From assembly GCA_047967505.1 (NCBI GenBank), contig CM106538.1: a stretch of 64,000 nucleotides of DNA; one strand, written 5' to 3'. The stretch is from Dipteris shenzhenensis (taxonomy: Eukaryota). Shown here one piece after another: positions 20,224-48,800 of this stretch. Made by a program: the position numbers and the translations under genes. Positions within the stretch are counted from its first letter, which is position 1. Each line of letters starts with the position of its first letter. The notes beneath the pieces are model-generated. The model saw only the letters and a list, made by a program, of their open reading frames with translations. It was not told the origin of the DNA and did no database searches.

Positions 20224-23200
20224 TCAACTTTGAGCACCATGAGCACGTTGGATGTTGACAAGGCGAGCGTAAGAGCCGTCAACTTTGGCAATGAGCTGGT
20301 CATGGGATCCTTGCTCCAAGATGTGACCCTCTTGTACCACAGCAATGGTATCCGCATTGCGGATGGTGGTGAGGCGATGGGCAATGACAATGGTGGTGCG
20401 TCCTTGCATCAACCGATCCAACGCCACTTGCACCACCTTCTCGGATTCCGCATCTAAAGCTGATGTGGCTTCATCCAACAAGAGAATGGCGGGGTCCTTG
20501 AGCACAGCACGTGCGATGGCCACGCGTTGCTTTTGTCCACCAGAGAGCTGGACACCACGCTCGCCAACTTGGGTCTGGTAACCATTGGGGAGGCCACTGA
20601 TGAAGCGATGGGCATTGGCCATGTTGGCAGCGGCCTCTATTTCGGTTTGCGAGGCACCTTGGCGGCCGTAAAGGATGTTCTCGTAGATTGACGTGGCGAA
20701 CAGAGCGGGCTCCTGCTGGACGAGGCCAATATGCTGACGAAGCGACCGGAGGTTGAGACGCCGTATATCCTTTCCGTCAACAAAGACGCTTCCGACAATT
20801 GGGTCGTAGAACCTCTCTACAAGCCCCACGATGGAGCTTTTGCCGGAACCGCTAGCTCCCACCAGAGCCAGACTCTCTCCCGCGTTCACTCTCAGCGATA
20901 GCCCCTTGAAGATCCGCACGTCTGGCCTTGTCGGATACGCAAATTCCACATCGCGTAGCTCTATGTCTCCCCGAACTTGCTCCACCTTCTCAGCGTTCAG
21001 ATCGTCTGGATCAATCTCTGTCCGGCGATCCACTATTTGAAAGACGGACTCCAACGCATTCCCCGCCTTGATGATGTCCGGCGTCAGCCCTAGCGTCTCC
21101 GCCACCGCGAATGCCGTCATCATAAGCACTAGGAAGACCTTCATCACAGAGCCAAAGCTGGCATTGCCGTTCTTGACCAGCGTGGAACCATACCAGAGCA
21201 CGAGGCCGTAGCTGCTGTACATGCACATCTGAGACAGGCCGTAGAAGAAGCCGGAGAAGTTTCCGCGGAGGAGGCTGCGCCGCGAGGGCCCGCGCAGGGC
21301 GAGTACGAAGAGGGAAAGGACTTTGTTCTCGGCGTTGAAGGCGGCGACGGTACGGATGTTGCTGACGGAATCGCCAGCGATCATGCTGGCGTGGGAGTGG
21401 GCGGCGTCGACGTCACCACCGAAGCCGGAGACGGTGAGTTGCTGCAAAGGAAGAGGAGAAGAAGCAAATGAGCGAACAACAGAAATTCGTGGACAGTAAG
21501 AAGGGTGAGGGAAGAGGAATTATCGACGGAAGGAGCACATCAACGACGGGAATTCGTCTACGACAGAAATTTAAGACGAATTGTCGACGGACGGGAAGTG
21601 GCATACCTGGCCGACAGCCGCACCGATGAGCAGGGGGAAAGTGGAGAGGAGAACGAGGGCGACACGCCATTGCACGACAAGGGCAATGACGCAGGCGGTG
21701 ACGAAGACCGTGGTATTCTGAACAATCATGGAGAGTCGATCACCGAGAGCTCCCCTCACGTGCGTCGCGTCCGTCGCCAGCCGGGCAGCCAGTCGCTTGC
21801 TATTATTCTCGTCCAAATCGAACCACCCTACCTCGTTCCGTATTATGGCTGCGACAACGGTAAAGAAAACTTTGTAAGTCTCCTTCCATCGAACGAAAGC
21901 GGAAAGACATCCTGTCAGTTTCCGTCGATCGACAGAAGAAAATTCGGTAAGTCTTTCGGATTACGTAGGTCTCCGTCGCTCGAACTCAGTTGCACATGGT
22001 CGATATCGAGCACTAAACCCCAACCATATAAAATCAGGCACAGAACCAACGGTTTCCGATGATCCGATCTACATATGTACACAACAGCTACTACATTGTG
22101 CTAAAACGGAAACGCATCCACAAACGTTCAAACTTTTGCGGCATTCGAAGGGAATTTCGCTTCTTCCCTGACAAACCGCCGGAACGAGCTGCCGAATCAG
22201 CAGCAGAATCGCTTTCGGCAAAATCGGGAAACGCGATTTTCTCAAACACACAACGGAATTGGGAAAGAGTGGAATTCCGTCGGCCAAACCGTAAAGCTTC
22301 AACAACAACAAAACTATCGATGGACGTGAAACCTAAACGTGATTTGGAGCAAGGATGCGACGGAGGCATCAGCTTACCGTCGGAGAAACGTTGCGAAAGC
22401 AAGAACAACGGACGGACAAAAACGTCGCGTTACGACAACGGTTACGACACTCACATCGGAACATCAATTCACGAACTCGAGCAGTGAGATTCTCGCTGAC
22501 GATGCCGAAGTAGTAGTGCTGCAAGACGTAGATGCCGAGCGAGACCACTCCGACGCAGACGTAAAGCAACGCATACTTCTGCACATCCTGTTTCATCTTG
22601 TGAAAATCGGTGTAATAGTAGATCGTCAACAGCTCGCTGATCACCAACGCGAAGATTGGATTCACGAACCCTGCCAGAATTGCTCCGACGCTCCCTAACA
22701 TCGCATACGGCCATTCCGGCGCATTCAGCTTCACCAGCCTCCAAAACGGCGAGCTGAATCTTCGACTTCCCGTCGTTGCCTCGACCTTGCTCCGTCCTAC
22801 TCCGGCTTCCCCTTTTGCAGTGCTGCCGTCCGCCTCTTCTTCATCCCGCTTGCCTTCCGATCCACCTTCGCTCGTGCAATGGCTCAATCTCCTTCCGCTG
22901 CTCATCCGCCGACCGCTTCTTGATAGTAAGCTCGCTTGACTCCCACCTTTCGGCGAGCTCGCACTCGTCCTCCCAAAGGAGCTTGCAACCCTGCACAGAT
23001 TGAGAATATATCACGGCTTTGTTCTCGCGACGAATAATGCATTGCGCAACGACCTTTGCTGTCTTTGCAGCTTCAGAAAACCCACAGCCGAACAGAATCG
23101 TGAAGTTCAAGACAACGCAGCTGTTCGAGTTCTGACGTACTTCGATCGCCTTCCTAAAATCGTTCCGTCGCTTGCCAAAGCCATCTGCTGCAGCTTTACC

Positions 23201-28235: not shown

Positions 28236-29860
28236 TGTTGACATGCCTAGTATATGAAAGTCTCTAACAATGATACATTTGGTATAATTGGTAATTGACC
28301 AAGAATCCATGATGGATTGTGTATCAATACTTGCCAAAGTATGACAACTTTTTTATTCAATGCATTTGTATAAGAAAACAATGCATCTGTGCTCAACAGA
28401 TAACAGGATCTCGTATGCAAGAGAGAAAAGCAGATAGTATGGAGAATCAAAATTTTGATTACTGTAAAACTGATACAATAGATGGTGCTGCCTCCTAGCC
28501 ATGCACTCCTGTGTGAGAAGCTTCGATGGCGTGCTGGAAACAGTGGAGGACAGAGGCTGGATGCTAAGGAATCAAGGTTGCTGTAGCCAATGATTCATAT
28601 GGGATTCAGTACGAGCTTGCTCTTATATAGCCACTAGTCATAGTCGGTTAGACCCAATTGGGAGACCGACCAAAACGGTTGATTGGAGGTCGGCGAAATA
28701 GGCCACCGACCACACATTAGAAACGTGGTGCAAAATAGAGCAACTAACGTACGGACTCTGTTCGGCCCCCATCTGGGATCTCATCTGGGGCTCCAAATGG
28801 GCCTCGCAACCTGAGAGTGGGCTGCGCCGGAAAATGCTCCATCTACCCTCAGTGCGGTCAGTCATGGGATGCCTTCCCACACTTGCATGTAGCCTAGTTG
28901 GCAGTGTGTCGACTCTATCTAAAGCTGTCCAGCCATTAGGCCACACATGGCCCCCATTTGGTGTCCAAACCAGGACCTACTGGATAACCGAGCTACTCAA
29001 ATGCCTTCTCCTCATATGGGGGGGCTTACAAGTAGAGTTAGTTGGTTCCCGCGTAGTTACATGAGAGTGGAGCATTGATATCTAGCACCCCCCCTCAATG
29101 TCCACCAGTAAGTGAACTACTTTTTCGGCCCAATGCCAAGTCAATGAAGATGCCTCTCCAGCAAGTCTCTTCCAAGAGCCTTCGTGAAGATGTCCGCAGC
29201 ATTCTCTGTAGTCGGACAGTACACCAAGTCGACCTCTCCATCCATGATGAGCTCGCGTACAAAAAGATATTGAATCTCAATGTGTTTTGTGCAAGCGTGG
29301 AACACAAGGTTCTTTGCAATTGCCATGTAACTCGGATTGTCACATGATAACTGCATAGGCTTGTTCTACACTGCACCGATGTCCCCTAAAATCCTCCTCA
29401 ACCACACTACCTCACAAGAAGCAAAACATGCTAATTTGTACTCAGCCTCGGTAGAAGAAAGAGCAACTGTAGGTTGCTTCTTGCTGACCCATGACACAGC
29501 TCCAGATCCAAGTGAGAAATAGTAACCTATCACTGATCTCCAGTAACCTGTCACTGATCTCCTACTATCCATGTCTCCTACCCAATCCGAGTCACTGAAT
29601 CTGATCAAGATGTTGCCCTTGGTATAGGTGATGCCATAATCAAGTGTGCCTTTGATGTATTTCAGCACCCGTATCCCTGCCCTCCAATGGTTCTCCCAGG
29701 GCTTATTGGAAAACATGCTTAGTACACCAGTCGCAAAGCTGATGTCCGGTCACGTGTTGCACAAGTAAATCAAACTGCCCACTAGCCTTTTGTGCTTCGC
29801 TTCATCCACTAGTAGTGATGAATCCTCATTTGAGAGCTTCACATCAACCTCCATTGGGGT
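28236..29860 (-). mobile_element. 3' part of a Ty1/copia element (RT C-terminus, RNaseH, PPT, 3' LTR); host of the P-like transposon
   Basis: RNaseH motifs FSDSDWVGDMDSRRSVTGY, VSWVSKKQPTVALSSTEAEY, HACTKHIEIQYLFVRE and ENAADIFTKAL. The PPT GAGGGGGGG precedes the LTR start TGCTAGA at 29087. The far end of the LTR (~28236) is uncertain. Confidence 0.88.
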
Positions 29861-30156
29861 CTCGGGGGGTCCATCTGGGAAATGTAAGTATACTATGAGA
29901 GTTCAAAATGAGGGGTATTTTAATTCTCAAGACTTACATAAATATATTTATAGCAGGGGTAATTTTATACACCATTTTTAAATTAACAGGTAGGGTGTGT
30001 TTATTCTCAGATTCAAATTAAAAGTTATTTTTTAAATATTGTCTGATCTAGGATGATGTTTAAGAGCAGTCACAATTTGTTGTTGGGTAGCTGAAAGTTT
30101 TAATGTCTGACTAGCCCCCACAGTTATAATAAGTAGATATTAGTATTGGATTCAGC

Positions 30157-30157
<1 letters not shown>

Positions 30158-30210
<53 letters not shown>

Positions 30211-30249
30211 ACACACACACGCACACACACATAGAGAGAGAGAGAGAGG
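30158..30249. repeat. (CA)n(GA)n compound microsatellite
   Basis: Direct reading. Confidence 0.95.
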
Positions 30250-31599
30250 ACTCAAATTGTATCTTTTAAGCTATGCTTTGAGATAGTGGAAATTTAGTAA
30301 CCTAATGTCAAGCTTTGCAAAGTGGATAAATTGTGTTTGAAAGAACATTTGAATGTGGAATGGGCTTAAGGAAAATTCTACTATAGGATGTTATTGCAAG
30401 CTTCTACTACATTGCGAGCATGTACAGTTTGAATATCCAAAAGTTCTCCCACTTATGTATCTTTTGGGCCCGACAAACTTGACCACTTTAAAGTGGAAAA
30501 AGAGTACCACCTTACCCTATATATAACCTTCTACATAACCTTTTCCTATATTTATAACCTTCTACATTTCAAATGATAAGAAGCACAAAAATTTGTTCAT
30601 ATAACATTGCTTTATGTTACACCACGAATGATTGTAATTACTTGTAAAGAAACATTGAGTTTCTAGTTTGATGGCATAGCCTCCCAGTTCAAAGAATGTA
30701 GACCTTTGTAGTTCACTATTCATGTCCATGTCTATTAGTCTCACTAGCTTGTGCATGATTTGGAACTTTCTTAGACCTGGACATGGCAAGGGAGAGCACG
30801 ATAGTGCAAGGGCCATTATAAATAGAATGCTGACTCATAAAAATATAAAGCAAGGTGGTGTAAAGCTATAACGTGCTAGTGATGTTGTGACATTCCTACA
30901 GGCTAGCATAAAATGTAGGCTCACACTTTATATCTCCTGAAAGACATATATTTTGAATGCTTTTTTTAGGAAGTTGAAGAACAAAATGGAGACAAAATGT
31001 GAATAGAGATGTCTTATGGAGCTATGATTCCATTCCTAACACTCTTTCCCTTCATTTTGTTAATGGGTACTCTTTAACACTTAGCACCACTTAGATCATG
31101 CTACTATAATGCATGCTTTCAAGGTATGTGGAAGATGTGTTCTAACAAAGCACCCCTTTCATGTTGGGAACATATCACACTAGTTCCATCAAGTGATTGT
31201 CATGTTTATGATCCTTCAATCAAAGATGCAACATATCAAGTTCACCATGATGTGTTGAGTGATGCTCTTGAAACTTGTGATGTTGTTGTGATCCTTCAAG
31301 CGATTATAATGTTGGTGATCCTTCAAAGTTCAAGCAAAGATATAGCATATGAAGTTCACTATAATACATTGATCAATGCTCTTGATATAGGCTCGACAAG
31401 TTTTTATGGTGAATGCTGAGGTTCAAAATATTGATGAGCATGCTAGTTCTTCTCCATCTAAAGTGCACTGCTATCAAGCATATGGCTAATCATATTTTGA
31501 AGAATGGATGGAATAATGTTATTGAACGAAATTCACTCTTTGAGAAAGGGTTATGCTACAAGAGCTAAGAGATTTGATGTTTGAATTGCTCGATCAAAA

Positions 31600-31985
31600 T
31601 CCTAAAGGACCTAGATACTCAAATCAATGGCATTTAATGCTATAAAGTTTTCGATGGAGATTGTTGAAGGTGATAGTGTAGTATTCAAGATTTTTGAAAT
31701 TGGATGTGAGGCTACATGGATGAGATAGTTTGTGACAAATCTTGGAGTATGCAGATTCGATGCTAGATCTTAGAGTAGATCCCGTGATGATATTTTTTGA
31801 TGATCAAATTTCCATTACATTGGAAAGAACCCAAGGATTCAACATCAAAACATTATGGAATTGGGATTGTTAACTATTTCTTGGAGAACACATTAGACCT
31901 ATTCCTAAAAGCCTTGCCTTGTGAGAATATTGAAACTTTCTTTGTATGATGTACACCATTGAGTGATGAGGGAGCGTTGATGGTT
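31600..31985 (+). mobile_element. Highly decayed copia RNaseH/PPT fragment inside the P-like element
   Basis: GCEATWMR*FVTNLGV and IFFDDQISITL remnants, followed by purine-rich GATGAGGGAGCG. Confidence 0.5.
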
Positions 31986-33227
31986 GGTCTTTCATGTGTA
32001 TGAACCAGTGCTAGAAAAAACCTCCCTTTAGTGTACTTTGCACCGGTTAAAATTGAAAAAAACTGGTATAAGTTGTGCCAAGTAGGTTATTTATAAGGGC
32101 TAAATTTAATGGCAAAATGTATTTTAAAGGTATTTGAAATATTAACCTTTAAAATTTAAGCTACAATTAAAGTTTCCTATAGAATACGTTAAGATTGCCT
32201 AGGGACTTTGAAAATTAGTAATATATGATAAAATATAAAAGAGATATATGTAATATTTAAAATAACTTAACACTAAAAAGTAGATTAATTTATAGGCGTA
32301 GATCTAATATCTTTGTAGTCGTAGATTAAGCCACCTTATCTTCTCTTAGGGTTTAGAAACTTCTAAGGCCTTTCTTGATTCTTGAACATTTCGTTGTTCA
32401 AGACAAGGCTCCATGTTCAATCCACAGACCCACTTCGTCGTTCGTATACAAAATCCTTGCACAAGTTTCGCTTTTCTGTGCATAGACGAGAATAGGCTGG
32501 CTGCAATGAACGAAATGATCAAAATTTCGTCCGTTCAGCACACAGCCTAGATGTGGAAATCCTTGCTTAACTTGTTGACTGACCGATTTCCCCCTTCTTT
32601 GCAGCCTTTTACGTCCCTTCGCAACCTCCTGATTCGTTTTCTTCGATAGACCTGAGTGCTAAGCCAAGCATCCCGAGTCCTTGGGATGAATTGGGAGTAT
32701 AGTTTCTATTCTAGCCGAAGCTTCCAATTCTAGCCGTTTCACAGTAAAGGTATACCAATTTGGGCAAATGATGGATAGGAAAGGGCAGTATCTAGGTGGA
32801 ATCATAAGGAGACAGAAGGATGGAGATAGCCAAGGAAGACAACTTAGATGTATGGAAAGGAAACCGATAAGGTAGCTAAAAGGGGAAAACAAACAGGTCT
32901 ACTTAATGTCCACACATGCTTGAAACACTTGCTTGGAATATTTTCTTGAAAGTGACATGATGAGACAAAATTTTAACTTTGGAGCTTCTATGAATTTGAT
33001 ATGCAAGAGTAGGAAGGTCCTCCAGAAGCTTGGAGGGCCTCCTCCAAGCCCGTCCTTCTTTTCAAATGCAATGATGACTTAAGCTACCACCTCATCTTTT
33101 GGAAGATGAGGATGATTGTTGGAGCATATAGCATGCAACAAATAATTTCATGTTTATATATGCCTATGCTTCTATGCCATTTATGCTTTATGCTTTAATA
33201 TTTCTATAGTCTTAGTATGTATTAAGC

Positions 33228-34406
33228 AATCAAGTCATGCAATGTATAGTATGTAAGCAATCTAGCCTCGGGAGCACTCCGGTCTCTTGACACGGTCTGC
33301 AATTCCCCTAGCAAAATGCTTATAGAATCAAGTCGTGCAATGTATAGTGTGTAAGCAATCTAGCCTCGGGAGCACTCTGGTCTCTTGACACGGTCTGCAA
33401 TTCCCCTGGATGAATGTTTACAGAATCAAGTCATGCAATGTATAGTATGTAAGCAATCTAGCCTCGGGAGCACTCCGGTCTCTTGACACGGTCTGCAATT
33501 CCCCTGGCAGAATGCTTAGAGAATCAAGTTCTGCAATGTATAGTATGTAAGCAATCTAGCCTCGGGAGCACTCCGGTCTTTTGACACGGTCTGCAATTCC
33601 CCTGGCAGAATGCTTATAGAATCAAGTCGTGCAATGTATAGTATGTAAGCAATCTAGCCTCGGGAGCACTCCGGTCTCTTGACACGGTCTGCAATTCCCC
33701 TGGCAAAATGCTTACAGAATCAAGTCGTGCAATGTATAGTATGTAGCAATCTAGCCTCGGGAGCACTCTTGACATAGTCTGCAATTCCCCTAGTAGAATG
33801 CTTATAGAATCAAGTCATGCAATATATAGTATGTAAGCAATCTAGCCTCGGGAGCACTCTGGTCTCTTGACACGGTCTGCAATTCCCCTGGATGAATGTT
33901 TACAGAATCAAGTCGTGCAATGTATAGTATGTAAGCAATCTAGCCTCGGGAGCACTCCGGTCTCTTGACACGGTCTGCAATTCCCCTGGCAGAATGCTTA
34001 CAGAATCAAGTCATGCAATGTGTAGTATGTAAGCAATCTAGCCTCAGGAGCACTCTGGTCTCTTGACACGGTCTGCAATTCCCCTGGCAAAATGCTTACA
34101 GAATCAAGTCGTGCAATGTATAGTATGTAGCAATCTAGTCTCGGGAGCACTCCCCGGTCTCTTGACACGGTCTGCAATCCCCCTAGTAGAATGCTTATAG
34201 AATCAAGTCATGCAATATATAGTATGTAAGCAATCTAGTCTCGGGAGCACTCCGGTCTCTTGACACGGTTTGCAATTCCCCTGGCAGAATGCTTAGAGAA
34301 TCAAGTCGTGCAATGTAAAGTATGTAAGCAATGTAACCTTGGGAGTACTCCGGTCTCTTGACACGGTCTGCAGTTCCCTTGGAAGAATGCTTAGAAAATC
34401 AAGTCA
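33228..34406 (+). repeat. Tandem array of 12 x ~98-bp units plus a ~10-bp partial unit
   Basis: Consensus AATCAAGTCGTGCAATGTATAGTATGTAAGCAATCTAGCCTCGGGAGCACTCCGGTCTCTTGACACGGTCTGCAATTCCCCTGGCAGAATGCTTACAG. Unit starts: 33228, 33326, 33424, 33522, 33620, 33718, 33808, 33906, 34004, 34102, 34201, 34299. Confidence 0.97.
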
Positions 34407-34458
34407 ATAATTGGAAATGCATCTACATGCTCACAAGAATCAAACCGTTTAGTTGTGT

Positions 34459-34492
34459 GAGAGAGAGAGAGGAAGGGATAGAGAGAGAGAGA

Positions 34493-34535
<43 letters not shown>
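34459..34535. repeat. (GA)n microsatellite
   Basis: Direct reading. Confidence 0.95.
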
Positions 34536-34538
<3 letters not shown>

Positions 34539-34614
34539 AATCTTACAAAAGCAATTAATTTTGTTTTATGTGCAGAAGGTAACATGGACAAGATGAAGAG
34601 TCATAAAAAAACAC

Positions 34615-35967
34615 GTGTTATATGAATATAGATTTAAGGAAGGAATGCGAAAAATATTCTCGAAGTGTCTTTGCATGAGCTTGTTATCAAAAACGCAGGA
34701 AGATTTGGAAAAGTATTTTAACTTAGGGGAAAGAGGGATGGATAAGCTTTGTGTGGATCTTTCCTCTGATGTCATTACCATGATGAAGAATGAAGATCCA
34801 CAATGGAATATGCAATATGAATTTCAAGATAATTTTTGTGTGAGTATTCGCATAGAACTAGGGAGAGTTAAAAGTGTTTATGAAAAGCGGACAAGCACAT
34901 TCAATCTCAGAGATACAAATAATAAAGAAGAGTTGATTGATTGGTTTTCCTTAAAGTGGAAGGCAGTTATGAGTTCAAAGAGGGAAGCATTCAATGCCAG
35001 TTCTTCAAAAGAATGTGTCAATCCCATAGGATTGAAAATGCCATCTTTGTTTTTTCTTGAGAAGCAACAGATTCATGTACAAGAGAAAGATTATGTGCTG
35101 GGTGAAGGCTCATATGGAAGAGTGGTGAAAGGTAACATCATTGGTGTAGACTGCTTTGATCCAAAAGAGACCTTTGCCATTAAGAAACTTAAGGTATCTC
35201 AAAAGCCAAGTGAAAGGGAAGAGAGAAGGTCCATGCGAGAGTTAATGGCAAATATGGAAACAATGCAAGCCCAATTACCTCATAAAGGACTTGTTCGCAT
35301 GATTGCTCGTGTGATAAATCCTCCAAGATTGGTATACCAGTATTGGAATGGGGAGACATTGGACAAATGGTCAAGGTTAAATGCTATGAACTCAGTCTAT
35401 GTGGGAGAGGAGCTAGACCATTTATCTCATGTTCATACTCATGCCGTAAATCTAGCTGGTACTTTGATGGGGACGTTAAAATACATGCATGGAAAAGACC
35501 TTTTGCATAATGACTTGCATCCTTCGAACATTATGCTTCACTTTGATAGTGAGTCTGATAAGGTCTTCATAGGAATTATCGATTGGGGATTAAGCAAGAG
35601 TGATAAATATGTCAATGATGGCAAGGATCGATGTGACCCTCAATTCAAAGAGCGATGCATGCGAAGAAAGTGGTTGGCTCCTGAGTTGTATACTTTTCCA
35701 TATGCAAAGTTTTCCAAGGAAACTGATATTTATGCTACAGCCTTTTCATTGGAAAAGTTGTATCGGCTAGCTTACAAGTACTTTGTTCACATCCAAGATA
35801 CAACTAAGTTAGATCACTTAAAGCATTGGTGGAAGAGAATAGAGGAAATGAGAAATCCTATTCCTAAAGCTAGACCTACTGCAACAGATGTACTCATACA
35901 TTTGAAGTTATATTCAAAGTCACATGTGAAAGTGCATTACGACATGATGCATTGTAACCTTTTGTAG
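34615..35967 (+). CDS. Intronless protein-kinase-domain ORF (~450 aa) carried inside the transposon
   Basis: Glycine loop LGEGSYGRV, FAIKKL (catalytic Lys), catalytic loop LLHNDLHPSNIML, IIDWGLSK, WLAPE, TDIYA and RPTA. The true start is uncertain: either ATG 34645, or ATG 34584 if the A7 run near 34605 carries a 1-nt insertion. Confidence 0.88.
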   Translation: MLYEYRFKEGMRKIFSKCLCMSLLSKTQEDLEKYFNLGERGMDKLCVDLSSDVITMMKNEDPQWNMQYEFQDNFCVSIRIELGRVKSVYEKRTSTFNLRDTNNKEELIDWFSLKWKAVMSSKREAFNASSSKECVNPIGLKMPSLFFLEKQQIHVQEKDYVLGEGSYGRVVKGNIIGVDCFDPKETFAIKKLKVSQKPSEREERRSMRELMANMETMQAQLPHKGLVRMIARVINPPRLVYQYWNGETLDKWSRLNAMNSVYVGEELDHLSHVHTHAVNLAGTLMGTLKYMHGKDLLHNDLHPSNIMLHFDSESDKVFIGIIDWGLSKSDKYVNDGKDRCDPQFKERCMRRKWLAPELYTFPYAKFSKETDIYATAFSLEKLYRLAYKYFVHIQDTTKLDHLKHWWKRIEEMRNPIPKARPTATDVLIHLKLYSKSHVKVHYDMMHCNLL

Positions 35968-36233
35968 CACTACAGTTTCTAAATAATATTCCAAAGATTG
36001 ATGGTTTTCTTTCTAGTACATGATCTATTTATGTATATAAAAAACATTTCAACTTTTTTGTTTTGATATAGTGTTTGTGAAATACTTTATTTTTCTCTCC
36101 TCTTAAGCTAGAATATTGATCTTCAGTAAATATCATTAGTGATTTAGACTATGGCATACCATTTAGAATTTAAAAGTTATGAGTTTATTTATATTTTTCT
36201 CTTATTTTGATTAGGTATACTATTGATCATATC

Positions 36234-39200
36234 ATGGCTTCAAAGACTCACATAAAGGTGTTTGACTATGGATCATCTGAGAAGAAGCTTTTGGGATATG
36301 TTAGAGTGCTTGGTGACTCTACCTATAGCATGATACGTAAGGAGATTATGCAAGATGGAATCATTAATGTTCCTTTTCACTTTGTTATCAAAGATGACAA
36401 TGATGATGAAGGTTGCATACTAAATACAATAAGAAGAACGTTGGAATGTTGAAGAGGATAGGTGTGTTGGTATAAAGAGGTCTCTAAGTACGATTGTCGA
36501 TGAGATCACACCATCAAAACGTGTTTGCAGAACATCAGATAATATTCATAAAGAAGTTGATATTGTAAATGTTGATGAAAGACGTGAGCATGTTTCTTGT
36601 AGTCATGGTTTAAACATGCACAAAAGTAAACTTTTAGCAACGTCTATTCTTGAAGATTGGGATAGTCATTGTGAAAAAGTTCGCAAAAAATTGAGGCAGC
36701 GTAAGACACCTAGAGATGATAAATTTGAGCTCCTCACAGAGGATCTTAATGGAAAGCCTAAAGTTCGAATTTGGTGTGTTGAATGTGGAATGCCATATGG
36801 ATCAGGGTCCATTGAAGGCAAGCAATCAGCTTACACTTGCTTGTCTAATTTTCTAAGAACCCATATTCTAGAAAGCCAGAAACATCAAAAAAGATATGCT
36901 GCCAATCGAGGATTTATCACTGAAGAAGCATGTCTTCGAAAAGATAGCATGAAGGACGCTCAGGACGATGTTGATGATGCAACAATAATTCTTGATGCTA
37001 TTGAGGAAATGCACACTTTCAATAATTCTCATAAAGGTAATCTCCACTAGAAGCATGTAGAGATGACAAAATTCTTTCTTTTGTTAAAATTTTCATAAAT
37101 AGGGTCAAAAAAATATTCTTTTGAAATTTTTCATTATCGAGTATGTTGCAGGAGCAAAGTTTGAGATAGTTGAAGCAACTTTGAATGACTACAAGGATAA
37201 AAATGCTGTAAGTGTGGCATGTGGATATGATGGAAAATGGTTGTTTTTGTGCCCTCGAGGTTTAGATCTACAAACAATTTTATCAGAACATATCAAAGGA
37301 AAAGCTCACATCACTTCTTCCAGCAAGAAATCAATGGAGCCATGTCCAGTATTATCAAGGGTTGTTGGCCGACCTAGGAAGCATTTTGACAAAGATCCAC
37401 GACAAACATCGTTGGGAAGGTTCCTTGTACAAACAAAGGAGTTTAAAGTGTTGCAACCAAAATGTGGTGATACAGGATCTCTTTCTGATTCCTTGACTAA
37501 GTCATTCTTATCTTCATCATCAAATATAAATTTGTTATGTTGGGGATTATGGCAAGCTAATGTTCATGTCAATGGTTGTGAAATTAATATTAAGTCATTT
37601 TTGATGGATCAAAAGATGGGGCATGAATGGTTTTGTGAACCATATACAAAGGCCACTTTACATGATGGGAATATGGAATACAAGATAGATGGATGCTTCA
37701 GGCACATAAATTGTCTTCGTATATCAATCATTGGAGTTCCATTTCAAGGTTTCTCATGTGAACACTGTAAGAAAATTTCAGGTTGTTCTGATTTTCGTAT
37801 GAGAATATATAGGGAGAATCTTGCCGTTCAGAAGAGAGGAACCAGGAAAAGAGGCAAAGGAAGGCGGGTAGACTACCTGACAATTGAAGAGCTAAAAAAT
37901 GCCACTTTTGAGTGTAGGAAAAGTTTGAATGAAGAAAAAAGAAGGCTGTGGTGGGCAACATCAAAAATTGTAATGCTGTCAGTCAGAGTCAAAACTTTGA
38001 ATGAATCAAGTTTTGAATGTATAAATAGGAAAGATGTTCGACGCTTTTGTAACAACATAATTGAAGCTCGTAGACAAGGAAAGTTTGGTGGAAAATCAGC
38101 CTTGTGGGAGTTTTTTCAAGAAGTGGCACAGAACATGTTACGGTCAAAGCAAGGACACAGGTTTAGTGACTCTACAAAAATCATATATGAAGTTATTAAG
38201 CTATGGGGTGGTCCAAGACTACATGAGTTCTTGAGTATAAACCTTGGAGGTCCATCTTTGTCTACCACTAGAAGGCAAGGAAGAAAAGAAATTGAATTTA
38301 TTTGTGGTGAGCACGAATACATATTCGATGCTGTTGGGAAGATCTATATGGATGCAAAAAAAAGATATGGAGTCATTTCTATAGTTCCAGTTATCATAGT
38401 GGAAGATGAGACAACCATTAAGCGTCGAATAAGGTAATTTTAGCTCTCTATGCATTCTACTTTTATCTATATCATCAAGATATTTATAATTGCTATGTTT
38501 GGAAATCTCTCAAAAAGATGAGGAAGTTATTAAACTCTATAATCGTGTTGTGTAGATGGAATGCAAAAGATGACACTCTTATTGGGTTTTGTGGAAAGAA
38601 AGGAGAATATCATCAATGCTCATCAAATGACTCCATTGTTGTTGGTGAAGGCTCACAAGGATACTCGAATATTATAGATGCTTTTCAAAATCATATCATA
38701 GGTCATTATGCTAGACTTTTGATTGTTAATCCTCTTCATGATCTTCTTCCACGTTTGGCTTTGATTGTGCATTGCACATGCAATCGTTTTGATAGTGATT
38801 TTGTAAGGAACCAATGGAATCTTTTGGAGACCATGTGGAATGCAAACCTGAAAGATAAAGTTGGACCCATAATTGGACATGCTTCAGATGGAGATAGTAG
38901 AAGACGAAAGTTGATGCTTGAAGACTATTTGGAGAAAAGCGAACAACCTTTTGCTATCAATTGGTGTGGATGGAATATGAGAGCAAAAATTGTAGGAGGA
39001 AATGTGTATGGCCTTCATGATCAAGACTTTGTACACTGTGGAAAGAAACTTACAAGCCCACTTGATAGTCCTACTCGACAACTAGCAATTGGATGTGTTT
39101 GGATCACACTAAATCATGTATCTATTGTTTACAATTCTTTTTCAATTGAGGAGCACAAGCTACGAGATGGAGATATTCAAAGGAATGATCGACAAAATTG

Positions 39201-40706
39201 GGGAGCAACTCAAAGGATTGCAAGTAGACAAGTACAGAAATGTTTGAGAAAACTTTAAAAAAAAGAAAGAAGTATGAAGGGGACTGAGGCCTATTTGATG
39301 ATTGTTGCTGATTATATTGATATTTTCTTGTCACCATATTTGATCTTGAAGGAGCGTGTGGTGCTTGCAGCCAAGGTAGTCTTCTTTTTCAAAATTTGGC
39401 GACTATGGATTCATCACCATCCAACCTACACCTTGAAGAAAAATTTCATGAGTAAGGAGGCTTATACGGACTGCATACTTTCTTGTCATTTTGTTGTATT
39501 GCTCATAAAGATGTTTTGAGATTTTTATCCTAATCTGAAGTCTCCACTACATCTTACCGGTTCTGATGCTGCTGAAATCTATTTTAGTAAAGTTGGAGGC
39601 ATGATTGGGCAAGAAAGAGCATTTGATCTTGGAGATCTTCTACATAGCATTGGTAGCTTGAATAAAATTGCCATGCATGAGTGTGCTCAAAATGGTCTAA
39701 CTTTCTCTAGGGCTCATAAAAAGCAAGAGCATATATGGAAACATTTGAATAAACAAGAAGGGATGATTGAAGAAAATCTAGGTGACTATGAGAGTGTTTC
39801 TTCTGATGAAAAGATGATTGATGCATTGAAGGAGGGCTTACAACAAGCTCACATACTATGCGAGTCTTTGGATTTGAAACCTAGCAAGGCTGAAGACTTG
39901 AAATGGTGGTTTCAACCTTCGCTGGATACAGGGTCTACATGGTGTAAGCTAGATGCTGAAATGGGAGAAGCTGATGAGAATGATGACTTTGTGGAGCCAT
40001 GTGGTGAAGAAGAATCTATGGACGAGAATAGCAATGAAAGTGAAGAGGTTATTGCACTTAGTGAGATTAGACATGAAATTGATGACATTTTGAAGGAAAC
40101 AAGAAACATGCCCCCTAAGAAAAACATTAGCCCCATTGTAGAGGTGGATGGAAAGTTTATTTTCAAATCAACATTGGTGAGCCAACTCAATGGATGTCCA
40201 ACCTTGTCAAAAGATAGACTCACAAGGATAAAGCAAGGTGTTTACTTCAACCATGAAGCAAAAGCACAATCATCAAATGGAAATTTATTTGGCATAGGTT
40301 GTGATTGTGCTCTGTATACTTTCATGATGACACAAAAGGACAAGGAAATCAACACATGAAAAGAAATGGCAAAGCTACAAACACGAGGAAGATGGATGCA
40401 ACTCATGGTACATGGTACTTAGGAAGAGTTCAAAAGATGAGGAAGAAAGTCGGAGGGAGGTACGTGGATTATAAGCATGGCTTTGATTTAGCAGATAGGC
40501 CCCAAGGTTTGGAAGTTCAGCTTGGATGGTATCAAAGGGCAAAAGGAGCACAAATGTTTACTTATGATTTGACAGACTTAAACATGGTGGACATTGAAAC
40601 AATTATTGCATTAGCAAATTTGACATATATTGTAAGAACAGACAAGTACCAGCTAGATGAGAATGACTACAGAGTTTTTAATGACTTTTTGAAAAGTGCT
40701 AGGTAA
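36234..40706 (+). pseudogene. P-element-superfamily (THAP9/Tnp_P-like) DDE transposase, ~1,400 aa when spliced, disrupted
   Basis: Phase-consistent introns at 37037-37151 and 38434-38555. Motifs GGPRLHEFLSINLGGPSLSTTRR, IIVEDETTIK (D 38405), IGHASDGD (D 38887), DFVHCGKK (DxxH 39025), DRQNWGATQRIAS and GSDAAEIYFSKVGG (E 39574). Lesions: frameshift ~36430, TAA 39256, TGA 39517, 2-nt insertion ~40311. Confidence 0.8.
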
Positions 40707-41439
40707 GTTTACTTTGCATTTTTCATGCAAGGTAAAACTTTCCAAAATGTTTTATAATGAGCTACATCATCTAAGGATCATCCTTGGCTAATTTTGGTTT
40801 CAGATAATGATATGTCACATGTATCGCATAAGGAGTTGGGCTAGTTCTTGAGGCAAAATTCTACATTTTTTTGTAAGTCAAATACCTTAAGATAAACTTG
40901 AACACAAACTTTTCTTCATATATAATTCTATATTTTTTGTAAGTCAAGTAATTTAGATAAACTTGAGTGCAAACGTTTTCTAGCTATATCTAACATTAAT
41001 CATGCAAAATTCTTGATTCTTATTGGTGAATAAACAGGACAATACTGGATGGAGGGTCGAATTTGGAAGCCAAGTGGCCTGTTTTAGGGCCCTCCCTTGG
41101 CTATAATCTTTACACTATAAACAAGACAATTCCACATCCTCTGTGTTATCCAGCTGAGGTCATTCAAGGATCCATCGATGAGGAGGAGAAGTCTGTGTAA
41201 CAACCTTTAGTCTAGCTATCTCTATCTGATTTTTTGCCACGTCTAAGTCTAAGGTTTTGATTAAACTCTTGATGACAAGTCTTGGTTGTAACTTGTATCT
41301 ATTTTTAGATATCAATATGCTTGTACTTTGGATTCAACTCTACCTTTTCATTTGGTACTTTTGATGAAATTTGGCTATAGCTTGCACTACATCAACATAA
41401 TGCTACTACATGCATCATATTTAATATAAAAACTCCCAT

Positions 41440-41971
41440 TAGATTAACACAAGGTTAAAGTTTAAGCCATCTTCTTATAAGTTTGTGCCATTTTATTCAT
41501 AGTTCAATTCAAGTAACTTCATGCAAATCTCTAGTAGGTAGTGACAATTTCGGAGCATGCAAGAGAAACAAAATTGGATAAGGTGGAGTAAATACATGAG
41601 AATTTGAGAATTGAAAAGATCAAAAGTTGAAAATACGTTCTATTAGGTACTAGTATGGATGTAAAGCATGCATCTAGGCGACATACAATTAAAATGGTTT
41701 TATTCAATTATACAATAGATTAACACAAGGTTAAAGTTTAAGCCATCTTCTTATAAGTTTGTGCCATTTTACTTCATGCAAATCTCTAGTAGGTAGTGAC
41801 AGTTTGGGAGCATGCAAGGGAAACAAAATTGGATAAGGTCAAGTAAATACATGAGAATTTGAGAATTGAAAAGATCAAAAGTTGAAAATACGTTCTATTA
41901 GGTACTAGTATGGATGTAAAGCATGCATCTCAGCGACATACAATTTAAATGGTTTTATTCAATTATACAAT
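41440..41971 (+). repeat. Tandem duplication (276 bp + ~256 bp) near the right end of the P-like element
   Basis: TAGATTAACACAAGGTTAAAG...TTATTCAATTATACAAT at 41440-41715 and 41716-41971. The second copy lacks about 21 bp. Confidence 0.92.
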
Positions 41972-42198
41972 ACAATTTCTCAGAAGTAGCATTTGTTTCA
42001 ACTTACACTGAAATGTACAAGAGGAGGGCAAAAAATATAGGCTTCTTAAATTTTGAATTTATTGAAGGGATATAATTATTGATCCAAAAATTCATAGTAG
42101 GGGTATATAAATAGATAAAATGTGGTTACAGAGGGGTTTTTTAAATACCTTTCGAACGCACGTTGTATAGCTGGCTTATGTAAGGTGGACCCCCCGAG

Positions 42199-42296
42199 AT
42201 TGGGGTGCCAAGTGTCTTGCACTCAACCATGCGAAATGCCTTCAGTATCTCTCCATCATACTTCAGCTGTGAGATGAAGATCTGTTTTGGCTCTTG
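42199..42296 (-). mobile_element. Continuation of the host copia RT on the far side of the P-like insertion
   Basis: Reads QEPKQIFISQLKYDGEILKAFRMVECKTLGTP and joins 29860 in frame. Confidence 0.9.
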
Positions 42297-43432
42297 CTTA
42301 AATTCAAGGAGAAAGCCTTTAGTGGATCACTTCAGAGTTTTTGGTTGTGTTGCATATGCCCACGTGCCTGTGGAGTCATGGTTAAAGTGCTATCACCATC
42401 CTAGGAGTAATCATAGTAAATAGACTTCCATCATAAAACCATGTAGTCCCATCCATGACCTAAGGCCCTTATATGAAGTTTTATGTGTGAAGTTTGAACA
42501 TGAGACTTTTATGGTTCAAGTTGTATAAGGGTCAAAGGGAAATTAAAATGAGCACTAAAGACACATGTGCAACTGTTGAATGTATTGCGGAGAGATATCG
42601 ACAGATTTTAGCTTTGCCTTGTCGCTCTGGCCATTATCCAATGATCCAAGTTTCGGTCCACCTAAAGATGCTCAAGAGTCTACTCTTATATAGAATCATC
42701 ATCATCATCTGATAGAGCTTGCTAAATTATAAATTCCAAAATGATGCCAGGCATATCAAGCGACAAAATAAGCGTGTCACCCAAAAGCTGCATCAAGCTC
42801 ACTACTCCTTGTAAAAAGAAGAATGCTCAGCAACCCATACACCTTTGATGTTGAAGTTACCATTCCAAGTGCCAGATGTAATTTTGACTTAGTAATTACA
42901 TGCTCCACGACGGAAAGGCTGCCTGTTGCAAAACTAGTTTAGGGTCACAAGCCACCCACAACCAATTGCCCAAAAGGTCATAGGGCCTTAGCACATGGAT
43001 CGGGCTAGCATGGGTTTAGGATGGGAATCTTTTTGTCATTATTACACCCATCCTAGACCATTTGGTCCAGGATGGATTTAGAATGGAAGTAGCCACTTTT
43101 TCTCCCATCCTGAACCATGGCCTCTACACCCTAGCAACCAAAATGGGTTCCCCTTTTTTAGGGATTCCAAAACATGTGACGAGGACAAGTGTCCTTCTCC
43201 CCACCTCCTAAACACATGAAATGATGCCATGTGTCCTCTTCCACCTAAAACCAGCCCTAGCTCTTTTTTTGTTAGCATATGGTGGGATGGGAATAGGATA
43301 GAAATATGCATGGGACCACTTGGGACCACCTTTTCCCATTCCCATCCTATTTTTTGAAAGCCACCTTCACTTGCCAATTTGTATTAACCAGGTTAAGCGC
43401 TACCCTCAAGGGCAATTCCAATCGTCAAAGCC

Positions 43433-43435
<3 letters not shown>

Positions 43436-43468
<33 letters not shown>
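43436..43468. repeat. (TG)n microsatellite
   Basis: Direct reading. Confidence 0.95.
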
Positions 43469-43472
<4 letters not shown>

Positions 43473-43909
43473 TTTGTTTTGAATGGCCCATCCGGTAAAG
43501 GTAGTGGTGGGTTGAGATCGAATGCATCACACCCGATTTTGAACAGGTACATGCTTGCCCACATGCAAGTACTTAACTAGATCTGCTTGACAAATAAGCT
43601 CAACGCAAAAGACTCCTGGAAAAGCAGAGATGGAAAAGTAGAGAGAGGACATGTCCCTCAAATCTCCACGTAGGGGAATGGCTTTCCTAGCCAGAAAGTG
43701 TCCCAAAATCAGGCTCATGCCATCCATTGCTCAGAAATCATATTTGGAGGCTTGTAAAGGAAATTTACAAACTAGAAAATGCTAAGTATTTAAGGAGAAC
43801 CTTTGCACCAAGTAATTGCAAACAAGAAGTGTCAAATATTGGCCTAGCATTTGAGTCATGTGCAAATCCCTTACATGTGTCTTACTACTCATTTTGTGTG
43901 TCTAATTCC

Positions 43910-45062
43910 CTCTTCTCTTCATGGTTTCCTGTTATGACAAGGTTGTCCACATAAAGGAGCACGATCATACACCTGCCTCCTTCTCTATAGATGTACAAAT
44001 TTGCATCAAATGGGCCCCTCTTGAACCCATTTTGCAGAAAGTAGGCATCAATCCACTAGTACCACGCTCGTGGGGCCTGTTTTAGCCCGTAAAGTGTTTT
44101 CTTCAGTTTACAAACTTTACCTTCTGAACTGGGGATCACAAAACCTAGTGGTTGTTCCATGTATACCTCCTCGAGATCTCCATTCAGAAAGGCAGATTTT
44201 ACATTTATCTGAAATACGGGCAAACTTTCATGTGCTGCTAAAGCCAAAACACTATGAATTGTGGTTAGTCGAGCTGTGGGAGCAAAAGTATCCTGATAAT
44301 CAAAACCATGTACCTGTGCAAATCCTTTTACCACGAGCCGAGCCTTGTACTTATCCAACGTGCCGTCGGACTTGTACTTGGTCTTGTACACCCACTTGGT
44401 GCTGATTACCTTGCGTTTTGGTGGTCGATCCACAAGGTCCCAAGTGTTGTTCTTCATTATGGAGCCATACTCCGACTGCATAGCCTCCATCCACCTATCA
44501 TCACCCTATGCCTCTTCAAGACACTTCGATTCTTCAGCACGGATCACCTCTGTCATCAAAGTGTAGTTGACCAAGTATTCCTGCCCCCTTCTTTGCTCCT
44601 CTCATCTCTTGGACTAGCGGTGTTTGGATGGTTCCTCCTCAATGGTTGGAGGTTCTCTGCCATCTAAAAGCTGCTTTACCCACTCCGGGAATGGCCGTTG
44701 CCATTGTGGTTCTGCAAGCTCTTCTTCCTCTTCTTTATCTTGAATCCTCCCAAGCACCATTGGGGGAGTTCGGTCTGCTGTTGGTGGTTGTACTGGATGG
44801 ATATCCTAGTCCTAATTGTCTAGGAAGGAAGCATCCTCCTCCACTTGATGCGGCTGTTCTAAGAAGAACACGTCGCGACTTACTATTACCTTCTTGGTAG
44901 CAGGATTATAGAGACAATAACCCTTCGCCTCTTCACTGTAGCCTAAGAAAATACACTTCTGGCTCTTCGGTTCCCATTTGTTCCTGTTAGCATCAGGGAC
45001 ATGGACAAAACAGTTACATCCAAAAACTATGAAATGTGCAGCTGAAGGTTTCTTACCAGAAA
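43910..45062 (-). mobile_element. Ty1/copia integrase-end and RT N-terminal fragment, probably the same element as 28236-29860
   Basis: HFIVFGCNCFVHVP, KCIFLGY, EAMQSEYGSIMKNNTWDLV, KWVYKTK...YKARLVVKGF, VKSAFLNGDLEE, LYGLKQAPRAWY and LYVDNLVITG. Confidence 0.88.
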
Positions 45063-45809: not shown

Positions 45810-48800
45810 TGAGAGTGCTCTCAACGGAAGCAAGAACGGAAGAAGGAGAGAGAGAGACAGAGAGCCACACAAGTTTGGTGGGTGCAGAACCACCCTAATC
45901 TTCTTTTTCATTCATTTATATATGTGTTTGAGTATTGTACATAACTAGGGTTAAGGCACAGTGACCTTTAACCCCCACAACCTCCCACTTAAAGGACAAT
46001 GTGCCTTTAAGGGAGAACAACCAGTGAGCATACTATCCAATGCCCATCAATACACGACAATACTCAAACCGCTGACTAGGTAGACTCTTCGTCAGCATAT
46101 CTGCAGGGTTATCATCTGTATGAACCTTGACAAGCTCTATGTGCTTGTCCTCAAGTACCTCCCTGATGAAATGGTACCTGACCTCAATGTGTTTGGTCTT
46201 TGCATGAAAGACCGGATTCCGTGCTAGCTGAATAGCACTCATGGAATCACTATGCAATGTCGGTACACCTGTATGAATCCCCAAATCTCCCACTAGCCGA
46301 TCAAGCCATATAGCCTCCTTGCAACCCTCTGTGGCTGCAACATACTCAGCCTCTGTGGTAGACAAAGCAACGCACTTCTGTGCGCGAGACATCCACGACA
46401 CTGCACCACCTGCAAAGGTGAACACATAACCAGAAGTGGATCTCCTACTATCCACATGCCCTGCATAGTCTGAATCTGTGTACCCAAGTACACGCATGTC
46501 TCCTTTACCAAAGCAAATGCACATCTCCTTGGTACCCTTCATGTACCTCATGATGCACTTAACTGCCTCCCAATGCCTCTTTTCTGGATTAGCCATATAC
46601 CGGCTAACAACTCCCACTGCAAATGCAATGTCTGGTCTAGTAGCTATAATAGCATACATAAGACTCCCAACCGCTGATGCATAAGGAACCTTGGCCATCA
46701 TGGCCCTCTCCTCATCTGATTTGGGACTATCTGTATGACTCAGTTTCACATATGGAGGCAATGGAGTACTCATTGCCTTCCCCCCCTCCATATTGAAACG
46801 CTGCAATACTTTTGTAACATACTCTTTTTGTGAAAGCCAAAGGAGTTTCCTACTCCGATCACGCGTGATGCGCATACCAAGAATATGACCTGCAAGTCCC
46901 AAATCCTTCATATCAAAGGCCTCATGCAACTTTTCCTTTAAAGCATCTAGCTCATAAGTATTCTTGCTAGCCAATAGCATATCATCCACATATAGTGCCA
47001 GGATTATGAGGCTATTATCCTTAGCCCTTTTAGTGTAGAGGCAGTGATCAATTTCACTCCTTCTAAAACCCTGGGACCGAATGAAAGCATCAAACTTCTG
47101 ATACCATTCTCTAGGCGCTTGCTTAAGACCATAGAGACTCTTCTTCAGCTTGCAAACTAAATGCTATTTGCCCTTTTCTTCAAAGCCTTCCGGCTGCACC
47201 ATGTAAATTTCCTCATGCAAATCCCCATGCAAGAAAGCTGTCTTGACATCCATTTGCATAAGCTCCATATCCTCTACTGCCACTAGTCCAAGCATGCATC
47301 TAAGTGTGGTCATCTTCACAACCGGAGAGAATATCTCATCAAAGTCCACACCCTTCTCTTGCTTGAACCCTTTAGCAACCAAACGGGCCTTGTACCTAGG
47401 CACATCATCACCTGTGACCTTCATTTTGTAGACCCATTTACATGGCAATGCTTTCTTTCCATGTGGCAAAGAAACCAAGTCCCAAGTCTTATTCTTCATA
47501 AGTGAACTCATCTCTGATTGCATAGCATACTCCCACTTGCGTTGATCCTCACGCATCATAGCCTCTCTGTAGCAAGAAGGCTCTCCGCAATCAGTAAGCA
47601 TCACATAGTCTACCCCTGGAACAAACCTATCAGGCGGTCTAGACACTCTAGATGATCTTCTCAAGGGCATTTCAGCTTGCTGTCCCACCTGCATATCAGC
47701 CACATTTGGCTCATCATTTCCACCAATAGATGATCCACAATCTACCCTTGATTGTATACCTGTGGGAGTACTTGGTTGTACCATTTCTTGCACATTTGGT
47801 GCATGGACAGCTTGCTGTCTATCAACATAGGCAGGTGGATTCACATCCTGGAAAGTGATTCTCCTCATTTCCACATCCCTCATGGGTGCCTTATGCATCT
47901 TCTTCTCATTGAAGACCACATCATGGCTGCGTATGATCTTCTTTGCTTCTGGATCCCAGAGACGATAGCCCATCTCTCCACTTTCACCATAACCTAGAAA
48001 GATGCATTTCCTAGACTTAGGATCTAGCTTCTTTCGAAGCTCTTTTGGCACATGTGCATATGCCTCACACCCAAATATACGCAAATGAGAGTAAGAGGGC
48101 TTCTTGCCACTCCATGCCTCTTCAGGAATACCACCATCCAAACTCTTACTAGGTGATCTATTGATCACATGCACTGCAGTCTTCATTGCCTTAGCCCAAA
48201 AACCACTAGAAAGACTTGCATTGGAAAGCATGCATTGCAACCTTTCTTGAATGGTACGGTTCATCTTTTCTGCAACTGGATTTTGCTCTGGAGTACGAGG
48301 GGATGTGAGCTCCCTCTTAATCCCACGTGTATCACAGAAATGCTGAAAGTCATGAGAGAGATACTCTCCACCATTGTCAGTCCGTAGGCATTTAAGCGTT
48401 TTACCTGACTGATTCTCAACCAAGGCCAGCCATTTCTGAAATACCTGGAACACATCACTCTTCCGAGCTATAGCATAAGCCCACACTTTCCTAGTTGCAT
48501 CATCAATGAATGTCACATAGTATTCAGCCCCGCCTAATGACCGTGTAGGCATGGGATCACATACGTCTGAATGCACCAAATCAAGCATTTCAAACTCTTT
48601 CTTTCCCCTTCTTTTATGGGCTGATTTAGTCTGCTTCCCATAGAGACAGTGCTCACAAAATTCAAAATCAGAGAAACTCAAATGCGGTACATAACCCAAA
48701 CGGCATAAGAGTTTCATTCCATTCTGGCTCATGTGCCCCAACCTGCAATGCCACAAAGAAGTGCTTGGCTGCTCGGTTATTGCAACAACATGATCAAATA

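Follow-up and report, generated by a model that had tools for sequence, protein, structure and literature searches.

Coding sequences other than a transposase gene are found between the ends of several kinds of transposon. Gene-capturing elements such as Pack-MULEs, Helitrons and Pack-CACTA elements usually carry gene fragments in non-autonomous elements, and some MULE or CACTA elements encode a ULP1-like protease (KI-MULE or Kaonashi). A layout with two open reading frames (ORFs) is described for PIF/Pong elements, as is the combination of ORF1 and a transposase in PIF/Harbinger elements (PMC5543537). In a 64,000-nucleotide stretch of DNA from Dipteris shenzhenensis (contig CM106538.1; hereafter the window), a complete gene of one exon, which encodes a non-RD protein kinase, lies inside a 12,338-bp transposon, itself inserted into a copia retrotransposon, and is the upstream of two co-oriented genes. 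The element shares with PIF/Harbinger elements and ULP1-bearing MULE and CACTA elements the plan of an autonomous DNA transposon that encodes another protein in the same orientation as its transposase, but here the second gene encodes a protein kinase and related elements do without it. Like Pack-MULEs, Helitrons and Pack-CACTA elements it holds non-transposase coding sequence between its ends; unlike them it carries an entire gene, free of introns and with its catalytic residues conserved, together with a transposase gene of its own. A second gene in a DNA transposon is known, but a protein kinase as that gene is unreported in the literature searched: full-text searches found no DNA transposon with a complete protein kinase.

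The kinase gene and its family

The kinase frame is open from stop to stop over 456 codons (34597-35967, plus strand), and with a local stop-codon frequency of 0.077 the probability of such a frame by chance is ~1e-16. An earlier note, made from the letters of the window alone, had described an intact intronless ORF of 450 codons starting at 34584. The frame is indeed open and intronless, but the ATG at 34584 belongs to another frame and the true start is at 34645, which leaves 440 codons (Table 1); this methionine aligned with the start of P0003, a fragment of a related protein (see below). The note had also placed the stop ~270 bp before the transposase ATG and had found both genes similarly AT-rich. 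The distance to the ATG of the co-oriented transposase-like gene, at 36234, measured 266 nt, and the GC content was 0.378 in the kinase gene and 0.368 in the transposase-like gene, against 0.426 in the whole window. Neither a poly(A) tract nor a direct repeat, as the mark of a retrogene insertion, was found flanking the kinase.

The product matched the Pfam Pkinase family (PF00069) over residues 150-387 with an E-value of 2.2e-21 and 76.9 bits, the curated cut-off being 31.7. The motifs GEGSYG (153-158), AIK with K180, HNDLHPSN (288-295), DWG (313-315) and APE (345-347) were located. With E205 (the alpha-C Glu), D290, N295, D313 and R410 (the subdomain XI Arg), the catalytic set is complete: Gly loop, VAIK Lys, alpha-C Glu, HxD Asp, Asn, DxG Asp, APE and subdomain XI Arg. 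The residue preceding the catalytic Asp is N289 and not an Arg, and the variant, non-RD motifs that the earlier note had read in the ORF were confirmed at these positions.

A structure model of the protein (mean predicted local distance difference test score, pLDDT, 83.7) consisted of a helical domain, a disordered linker at residues 116-131 and then a kinase fold. Helices were predicted in the N-terminal domain at residues 2-14, 18-26, 29-50, 58-72, 75-82 and 91-118 (block pLDDT ~69-93). With the model as query in a fold search, no fewer than 500 PDB structures matched at E 0.001 or below, and ranks 1-50 were all kinases; the nearest solved folds were Tyr and TKL-type kinases (FES, JAK, FGFR), at E ~1e-11 and 16-20% identity. 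By sequence, the best PDB matches were SOBIR1 (E 3.6e-8) and FGFR2 (E 2e-7).

To place the kinase, 1.84 billion representative proteins were scanned with HMMER; of the 364 that matched at E 0.001 or below, 20 reached 1e-10 and none reached 1e-30. The closest relatives, 56-67% identical, were three short fragments: P0003 (92 aa, 62% identical to kinase residues 6-87), P0009 (81 aa, 67% identical, its tail frameshifted) and P0024 (64 aa, 56% identical). The next relatives were full-length proteins of ~440-650 residues with 20-35% identity and the same layout, an N-terminal region followed by a kinase; the best of these was 30% identical and none lay above about 30-35%. The earlier note had allowed for the capture of an intron-containing host gene, and no close host parent, intron-containing or otherwise, was found among these representatives. 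Relatives of the kinase were likewise not found in viral and prokaryotic genome collections. A word-based protein search returned nothing with the kinase alone, and only P0043 and two weak kinases with the family profile, while a protein-language-model atlas returned generic kinases only.

Among the 41 best matches of the 150 listed, H-[N/C/A]-D-x-x-x-x-N-..-L-H-[F/Y] was present in 28, D/E-W-G in 27 and W-N-G in 25; the remainder of the 41 includes seven ordinary kinases and the three fragments. Conservation was then read from a family alignment of 35 rows (A3). K180 was found in 26/26, E205 in 30/30, D290, N295, D313 and G315 each in 31/32, and R410 in 23/23, with W314 in 29/32. Before the catalytic Asp stood N in 26 of 32 rows, C in five, A in one and R in none, and the position of the catalytic-loop Lys was held by H in 15/32 and by S in 11/32. 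Because the catalytic positions are almost invariant and Arg never precedes the catalytic Asp in this alignment, the HNDLHPSN and DWG variants are the fixed signature of a kinase family without a Pfam name, probably catalytic. The general Pkinase model was the sole Pfam match for 32 of the 35 members.

The earlier note had left ~150 residues at the N-terminus unrecognised. No significant Pfam match was found for this region, but it is not private to this one protein: it aligned with the N-terminal regions of P0004, P0005, P0008, P0011 and P0043, and the match to P0043 spans query residues 22-349. Taken together, these comparisons delineate an unnamed eukaryotic kinase family, composed of a predicted N-terminal helical domain and a kinase domain, with the signature WNGG, H-N-D-L-x-x-x-N-..-L-H-F and D-W-G. 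In a quick tree, for which the careful search was unfinished, the window kinase occupied a long branch inside the family and outside its three subgroups.

Likeness to plant non-RD kinases, CK2 alpha, SOBIR1, FGFR2 and FES lies in the kinase fold, in the lack of an Arg before the catalytic Asp and, as in CK2, in DWG. The window kinase differs from these solved kinases in having no transmembrane segment or ectodomain, in its private N-terminal helical domain and in the His that replaces the catalytic-loop Lys. It is far closer to the unnamed family (E 6.6e-22 to 8e-18) than to the solved kinases; as regards RLK/Pelle, compared here by E-value, SOBIR1, the best solved match, was reached only at E 3.6e-8, against 6.6e-22 for the unnamed family.

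The enclosing transposon

The ends of the element in the window were found via the right ends of four related loci, L001-L004. These loci contain a shared block, 99% identical, that ends ...AGTGGAGTCCCCGGG (...AGTGGAGCCCCCAAG in L004), and beyond the end of this block the contigs run into four different flanks. The right-end motif lies at 42183-42198 in the window and at 5751-5766, 6264-6279, 6413-6428 and 5636-5651 in L001, L002, L003 and L004 respectively. Taken alone, the 15/16 match between the inverted ends of the window element is at chance level (E 1.2), and it carries weight only with the duplication or empty site and the multi-copy evidence. The ends are abutted by a perfect 8-bp duplication, and on the minus strand the two flanks form one copia reverse transcriptase (RT) frame, the right flank corresponding to residues 106-134 of a paralogue and the left flank to residues 133-240. 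The duplicated ATTGGGGT encodes, on the minus strand, a Thr-Pro pair, which is the sole overlap of both flanks on the copia RT paralogue, and the frame of the empty site runs on from one flank to the other at residues 133-134. The view of the earlier note that the kinase lies inside a transposon with terminal inverted repeats, co-oriented with the transposase and just upstream of it, was therefore borne out by the ends, the duplication and the split copia frame.

The right-end motif, GTGGA followed by two variable bases, CCCC, two purines and G, was kept between elements whose transposases are only 49% identical. No further copy of the 5' inverted repeat was found in the window with up to 3 mismatches. 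Earlier searches for ends (repeat search, self-BLAST and k-mer scans) gave no inverted ends, the true ends being farther out, and a local alignment of 31900-33250 against 40700-42250 scored 25, with shuffles at 21-35, the true pair of ends lying outside these ranges. A 32-nt inverted match between 31803 and 57858 was rejected as the element ends, both sides being copia coding fragments.

Evidence of other copies came from one public sequencing run, X1, in the form of assembled contigs. The kind of this run is uncertain; it is perhaps from the same species or source sample, holds 23% of the sampled words, and its contig depth is no measure of copy number. On 30000-45000 there were 116 X1 contigs, 25 at 99% identity or more, 51 at 95-99%, 35 at 90-95% and five below 90%, with cover absent at 30000-32003 and 36513-37013. 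Two other runs, X2 and X3, yielded next to nothing. Several X1 contigs cover the kinase sequence with a few per cent difference. Two joints fuse the kinase ORF to the interior of the transposase sequence, 34804 to 38033 (214 nt on the shorter side) and 35566 to 38922 (65 nt); two others run from 34436 to 37170 (45 nt) and, weakly, from 34572 to 37393 (29 nt). Because the first two joints fuse kinase-ORF to transposase-internal sequence, the contigs show that other copies have the same kinase-transposase order and that some are internal-deletion derivatives. Internally deleted, non-autonomous derivatives are typical of cut-and-paste elements. Inverted ends, a target duplication, several insertion sites of the related element and internal-deletion derivatives identify the element as a class II cut-and-paste DNA transposon.

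The second gene would, if intact, encode a zinc-finger protein estimated at ~1,380 residues. P0001 (1122 aa as called) and P0002, both full-length relatives, matched the window by tblastn with 49-56% identity over 37208-40724, and homologues of the N-terminal piece are present in L007 (E 8e-8) and in L002. The relative in L002 is intact: an exon of ~245 codons from 967 is followed by a short intron and then by an exon of 1137 codons, and there is no intron at the position equivalent to 38434-38555. This break in the window gene was considered as a lesion and rejected, as it is a 122-nt GT..AG intron; given the uncertain kind of X1, its absence from two contigs could represent splicing or an intron-less DNA copy. 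The gene carries two introns in all. The earlier note had counted four lesions in this gene, and comparison with the intact relative likewise gave four, namely a frameshift at 36433-36452, TAA at 39256, TGA at 39517 and two extra nucleotides at ~40310, and with two stop codons and two frameshifts in its transposase-like gene this copy of the transposon is dead.

Two of the related loci have features of their own. In L007 two partial, decayed, related transposase genes adjoin in opposite orientation (23-2345, plus strand; 2565-3581, minus strand), with a Ty3/gypsy-like integrase ORF (11065-12345, minus strand) beside the transposase pieces. In L003 an ORF of 673 residues on the other strand (5-2023, minus strand), which has a CCHC zinc knuckle and is probably a retroelement gag, truncates the related transposon on its 5' side.

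The class of the transposase-like protein was assessed by several routes. Pfam searches of the window pieces, P0001 and P0002 gave no family, with no match to TNP-like domains at E up to 1, and found no THAP zinc finger; the hAT dimerisation domain and the BED finger were also not found by Pfam. A PDB sequence search gave no match, the profile of the transposase alignment (A1) reached only a PHD finger, of PHF23, at E 0.16, and the structure model of P0001 was poor (pLDDT 28.6). Protein-language-model features were nearest to P-element/THAP9-like clusters, with scores of 0.82-0.89, and families of TNP-like RNase H and GTP-binding domains occurred in nine of the ten best feature matches that have a family. 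These scores are a lead, and a lead only, towards the P-element/THAP9 transposases. Inspection of the transposase-like family (~1,100-1,400 residues) by eye shows two C2H2-like fingers, an AT-hook-like motif (GRPRK), a Cys/His cluster of PHD-like appearance and an invariant GH-x-SDGDSRRR motif. Relatives of the transposase were not found in viral and prokaryotic genome collections.

The 8-bp target duplication fits both the P and hAT superfamilies. With P-element/THAP9 systems the window element shares the cut-and-paste type, short inverted ends, a duplication of 8 bp and a transposase of more than 1,000 residues; the clusters nearest to this protein by features, a lead only, carry TNP-like RNase H and GTP-binding-domain families. 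The element differs in lacking a THAP domain, a TNP-like Pfam match and a PDB match even by profile, in its N-terminus of C2H2-like fingers, AT-hook-like motif and PHD-like cluster, in the kinase as its second gene, and in the length of its ends, which measure 16 nt where those of the Drosophila P element measure 31 nt. With hAT elements it has in common the duplication length and short inverted ends, but neither their dimerisation domain nor a BED finger was found by Pfam in the window protein, which is roughly double the usual size and is P-like, not hAT-like, in its features.

Origin and role of the kinase

The reading preferred here, to which a probability of roughly 0.5 is given, is that the gene encodes an accessory kinase of the transposon, the result of a single acquisition that selection on the element has maintained, and is now seen in a dead copy. 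An ancestor of this element lineage would have acquired the kinase once, related elements being without it, and the kinase would then have been carried as a working gene under selection on the element, for an accessory protein and not as junk cargo. Because it is a kinase without the RD arginine it would probably have no need of activation-loop phosphorylation, and it is probably active, perhaps constitutively. The most likely targets, named by pure inference, would be the transposase of the element itself or host chromatin or repair proteins, so that phosphorylation would tune transposition. An effect of transposase phosphorylation on transposition is described for piggyBac in a preprint (bioRxiv 10.1101/2022.09.26.509586). 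An accessory role of the kinase is plausible. The ORF has retained every catalytic residue of a family to which it is only 20-30% identical, and no close parent is visible, both of which speak for past constraint.

Several observations weigh against this reading. The transposase class is unproven, given the Pfam and PDB results and the poor model described above, and the activity of the kinase is not certain, the catalytic-loop Lys of HRDLKxxN being replaced by His. The kinase was found in 0/9 related loci by tblastn or unfiltered HMM search, of which only L002 and L007 are informative: in L002 (49% transposase identity) the 966 nt upstream of the ATG are without a kinase, though one may lie farther out towards the left end of that element, and in L007 (44% transposase identity) more than 3 kb upstream of the N-terminal exon are without one. 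At the transposase rate of 3-4 lesions per 4.35 kb of coding sequence, a 1.32-kb kinase gene would stay intact with a probability of ~0.3-0.4. In X1 copies the kinase is interrupted by frame-breaking gaps of 76 and 34 nt, and among 10 kinase differences listed (40 of 298 differences being listed) seven codons were changed, 6/7 non-synonymously. Divergence of the X1 kinase contigs, from ~2% to 11%, was not lower than that of the transposase contigs, ~3-6%.

Because the two informative loci are without the kinase at that place, it seems not to be a standing part of the wider element group and is best read as an acquisition of this lineage. The neighbourhood of kinase and transposase, which the earlier note had pointed to as the thing to follow in other copies, recurs in the co-linear X1 contigs but is missing from L002 and L007. 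The earlier note had also made an argument of the kinase staying open while the transposase is broken. That argument is weak: because a probability of 0.3-0.4 is expected under the transposase lesion rate, the intactness of this kinase copy proves nothing about selection. The divergence pattern in X1 is the look of decaying copies and is no test of selection on an active lineage.

The strongest alternative, less probable but a serious one, is that the kinase is neutral cargo, picked up by one sublineage from a host or foreign genome and copied along without use in transposition, its intactness reflecting the youth of the copy. The absence of the kinase at this position in related elements fits such a history, as do its statistically unremarkable intactness, the gaps and mostly non-synonymous differences in other copies, the restriction of its three close relatives to short fragments, and X1 contigs that join across the kinase and so imply derivatives without it. 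Captured gene pieces in transposons are usually fragments, whereas this gene is complete, has its own start and is co-oriented with the transposase gene 266 nt downstream. Nor was a parent gene seen among the 1.84 billion representatives, where the best full-length match was 30% identical, and each of the eight catalytic positions compared is as in the family, whose members are only 20-30% identical, which points to purifying selection until recently.

A wider form of the accessory reading is improbable, though it merits mention: the WNGG/HND/DWG family would itself be transposon-borne, a P-like transposon lineage in several eukaryotic groups encoding a constitutively active non-RD kinase that it needs for switching on the transposase or for countering host silencing or repair, and the plant element having perhaps arrived via horizontal transfer. 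A little less probable again is a non-catalytic protein, either a pseudokinase-like scaffold or a nucleotide-binding protein, with a role by binding and not by phosphotransfer. It would account for an HNDLHPSN without the Lys of HRDLKxxN, at a position where the family has H in 15/32 and S in 11/32, and for the change of DFG to DWG. Tyr kinases also do without the catalytic-loop Lys, and DWG is present in the constitutively active CK2 alpha. The VAIK Lys, alpha-C Glu, catalytic Asp, Asn, Mg-binding Asp, APE and subdomain XI Arg are moreover kept, in 23/23 to 31/32 of the members. An ordinary plant kinase standing as an independent host gene beside a dead transposon, as the failure of the first searches to find inverted ends and the lack of kinases in related loci might suggest, is close to refuted by the inverted ends, 8-bp duplication and split copia frame that enclose the kinase, by X1 contigs that fuse the kinase ORF to transposase sequence, and by the higher GC of nearby host genes, which lie outside the element.

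Genomic setting and significance

By its genes the window is land-plant DNA, with a PPR protein with an E motif, an ABC-B transporter, copia elements and a CACTA-type DUF4218 fragment. Exons of the ABC-B type transporter lie at 20227-23010 on the minus strand (ABC_tran, 2.2e-32), the PPR protein at 62626-63999 on the minus strand (PPR_2, 3e-53) and the CACTA-type transposase fragment at 17713-18447 on the plus strand (DUF4218, E 1.2e-22). A nearly intact Ty1/copia polyprotein, with one in-frame stop at 47164-47166, occupies 46036-50119 on the minus strand and a second copia lies at 3-2771 on the plus strand; the kinase-bearing transposon is inside a third, fragmentary copia.

Within the element, the 98-bp tandem array that precedes the kinase was covered by X1 contigs of high word depth. 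This array may be a satellite that is expanding from the element, or its repeats may be binding sites of the transposase. In the ~2.4 kb next to the left end (29877-32300) neither a coding signal nor a match of more than 53 nt to the rest of the window was found; X1 gives no cover over 30000-32003, and this part may be specific to this copy or subfamily. The coordinates of all features are collected in Table 1.

Table 1. Features of the kinase-bearing transposon and its insertion site, in window coordinates
Feature	Position	Strand	Details
Whole transposon insertion, 12,338 bp	29861..42198	+	Inverted ends, 8-bp duplication, split copia RT frame
Left target-site duplication ATTGGGGT	29853..29860	.	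8/8 vs 42199-42206; abuts inverted end
5' terminal inverted repeat CTCGGGGGGTCCATCT	29861..29876	+	15/16 vs reverse complement of 42183-42198
12-copy tandem array, 98-bp unit	33228..34405	.	Tandem Repeats Finder: period 98, 12.1 copies, 90% matches
(GA)n microsatellite	34459..34535	.	
Upstream ORF MDKMKSHKKTRVI plus stop	34584..34625	+	13 codons; out of frame with kinase ORF (34645-34584 = 61, no multiple of 3)
Kinase gene	34645..35967	+	Single exon, 440 codons + stop; first ATG of frame = 34645
N-terminal helical domain	34645..34998	+	Residues 1-118, predicted helices; common to family members
Protein kinase domain	35092..35805	+	Pfam, residues 150-387; fold extends to ~residue 425
Transposase-like gene, dead	36234..40706	+	Exon 1 36234-~37050 with C2H2-like finger; later exons to stop 40706
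Frameshift lesion, exon 1	36433..36452	+	Overlap of two open frames; L002 reads same stretch in one frame, 964-1776
GT..AG intron, 122 nt	38434..38555	+	Skipped by two X1 contigs; splice restores ...IKRRIRWNAKDD..., matching P0001
In-frame TAA	39256..39258	+	
In-frame TGA	39517..39519	+	
Frame change, 2 extra nt near 40310	40305..40359	+	X1 contig without the 2 nt; removal joins 39520-40359 and 40305-40706
Two direct copies of 281-bp unit, 89% alike	41437..41972	.	3' subterminal region
3' terminal inverted repeat AGGTGGACCCCCCGAG (+ strand)	42183..42198	-	Window sequence ...AAGGTGGACCCCCCGAG ends at 42198; resembles right ends of related elements in L001-L004
Right target-site duplication ATTGGGGT	42199..42206	.	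8/8 vs left copy

Two by-products of the analysis concern the families themselves. One is a large transposase-like family in plant-like DNA that has no Pfam model and whose ends and 8-bp duplication are now defined. The other is a kinase family that no library names; it comprises at least 30 clusters at 50% identity, and its members combine an invariably non-RD, DWG active site with an N-terminal domain peculiar to them. A complete kinase gene is a rare cargo for cut-and-paste elements. If the kinase serves the element, this would be a transposon that brings its own signalling enzyme, and the control of transposition or of host defence by phosphorylation would be directly testable.

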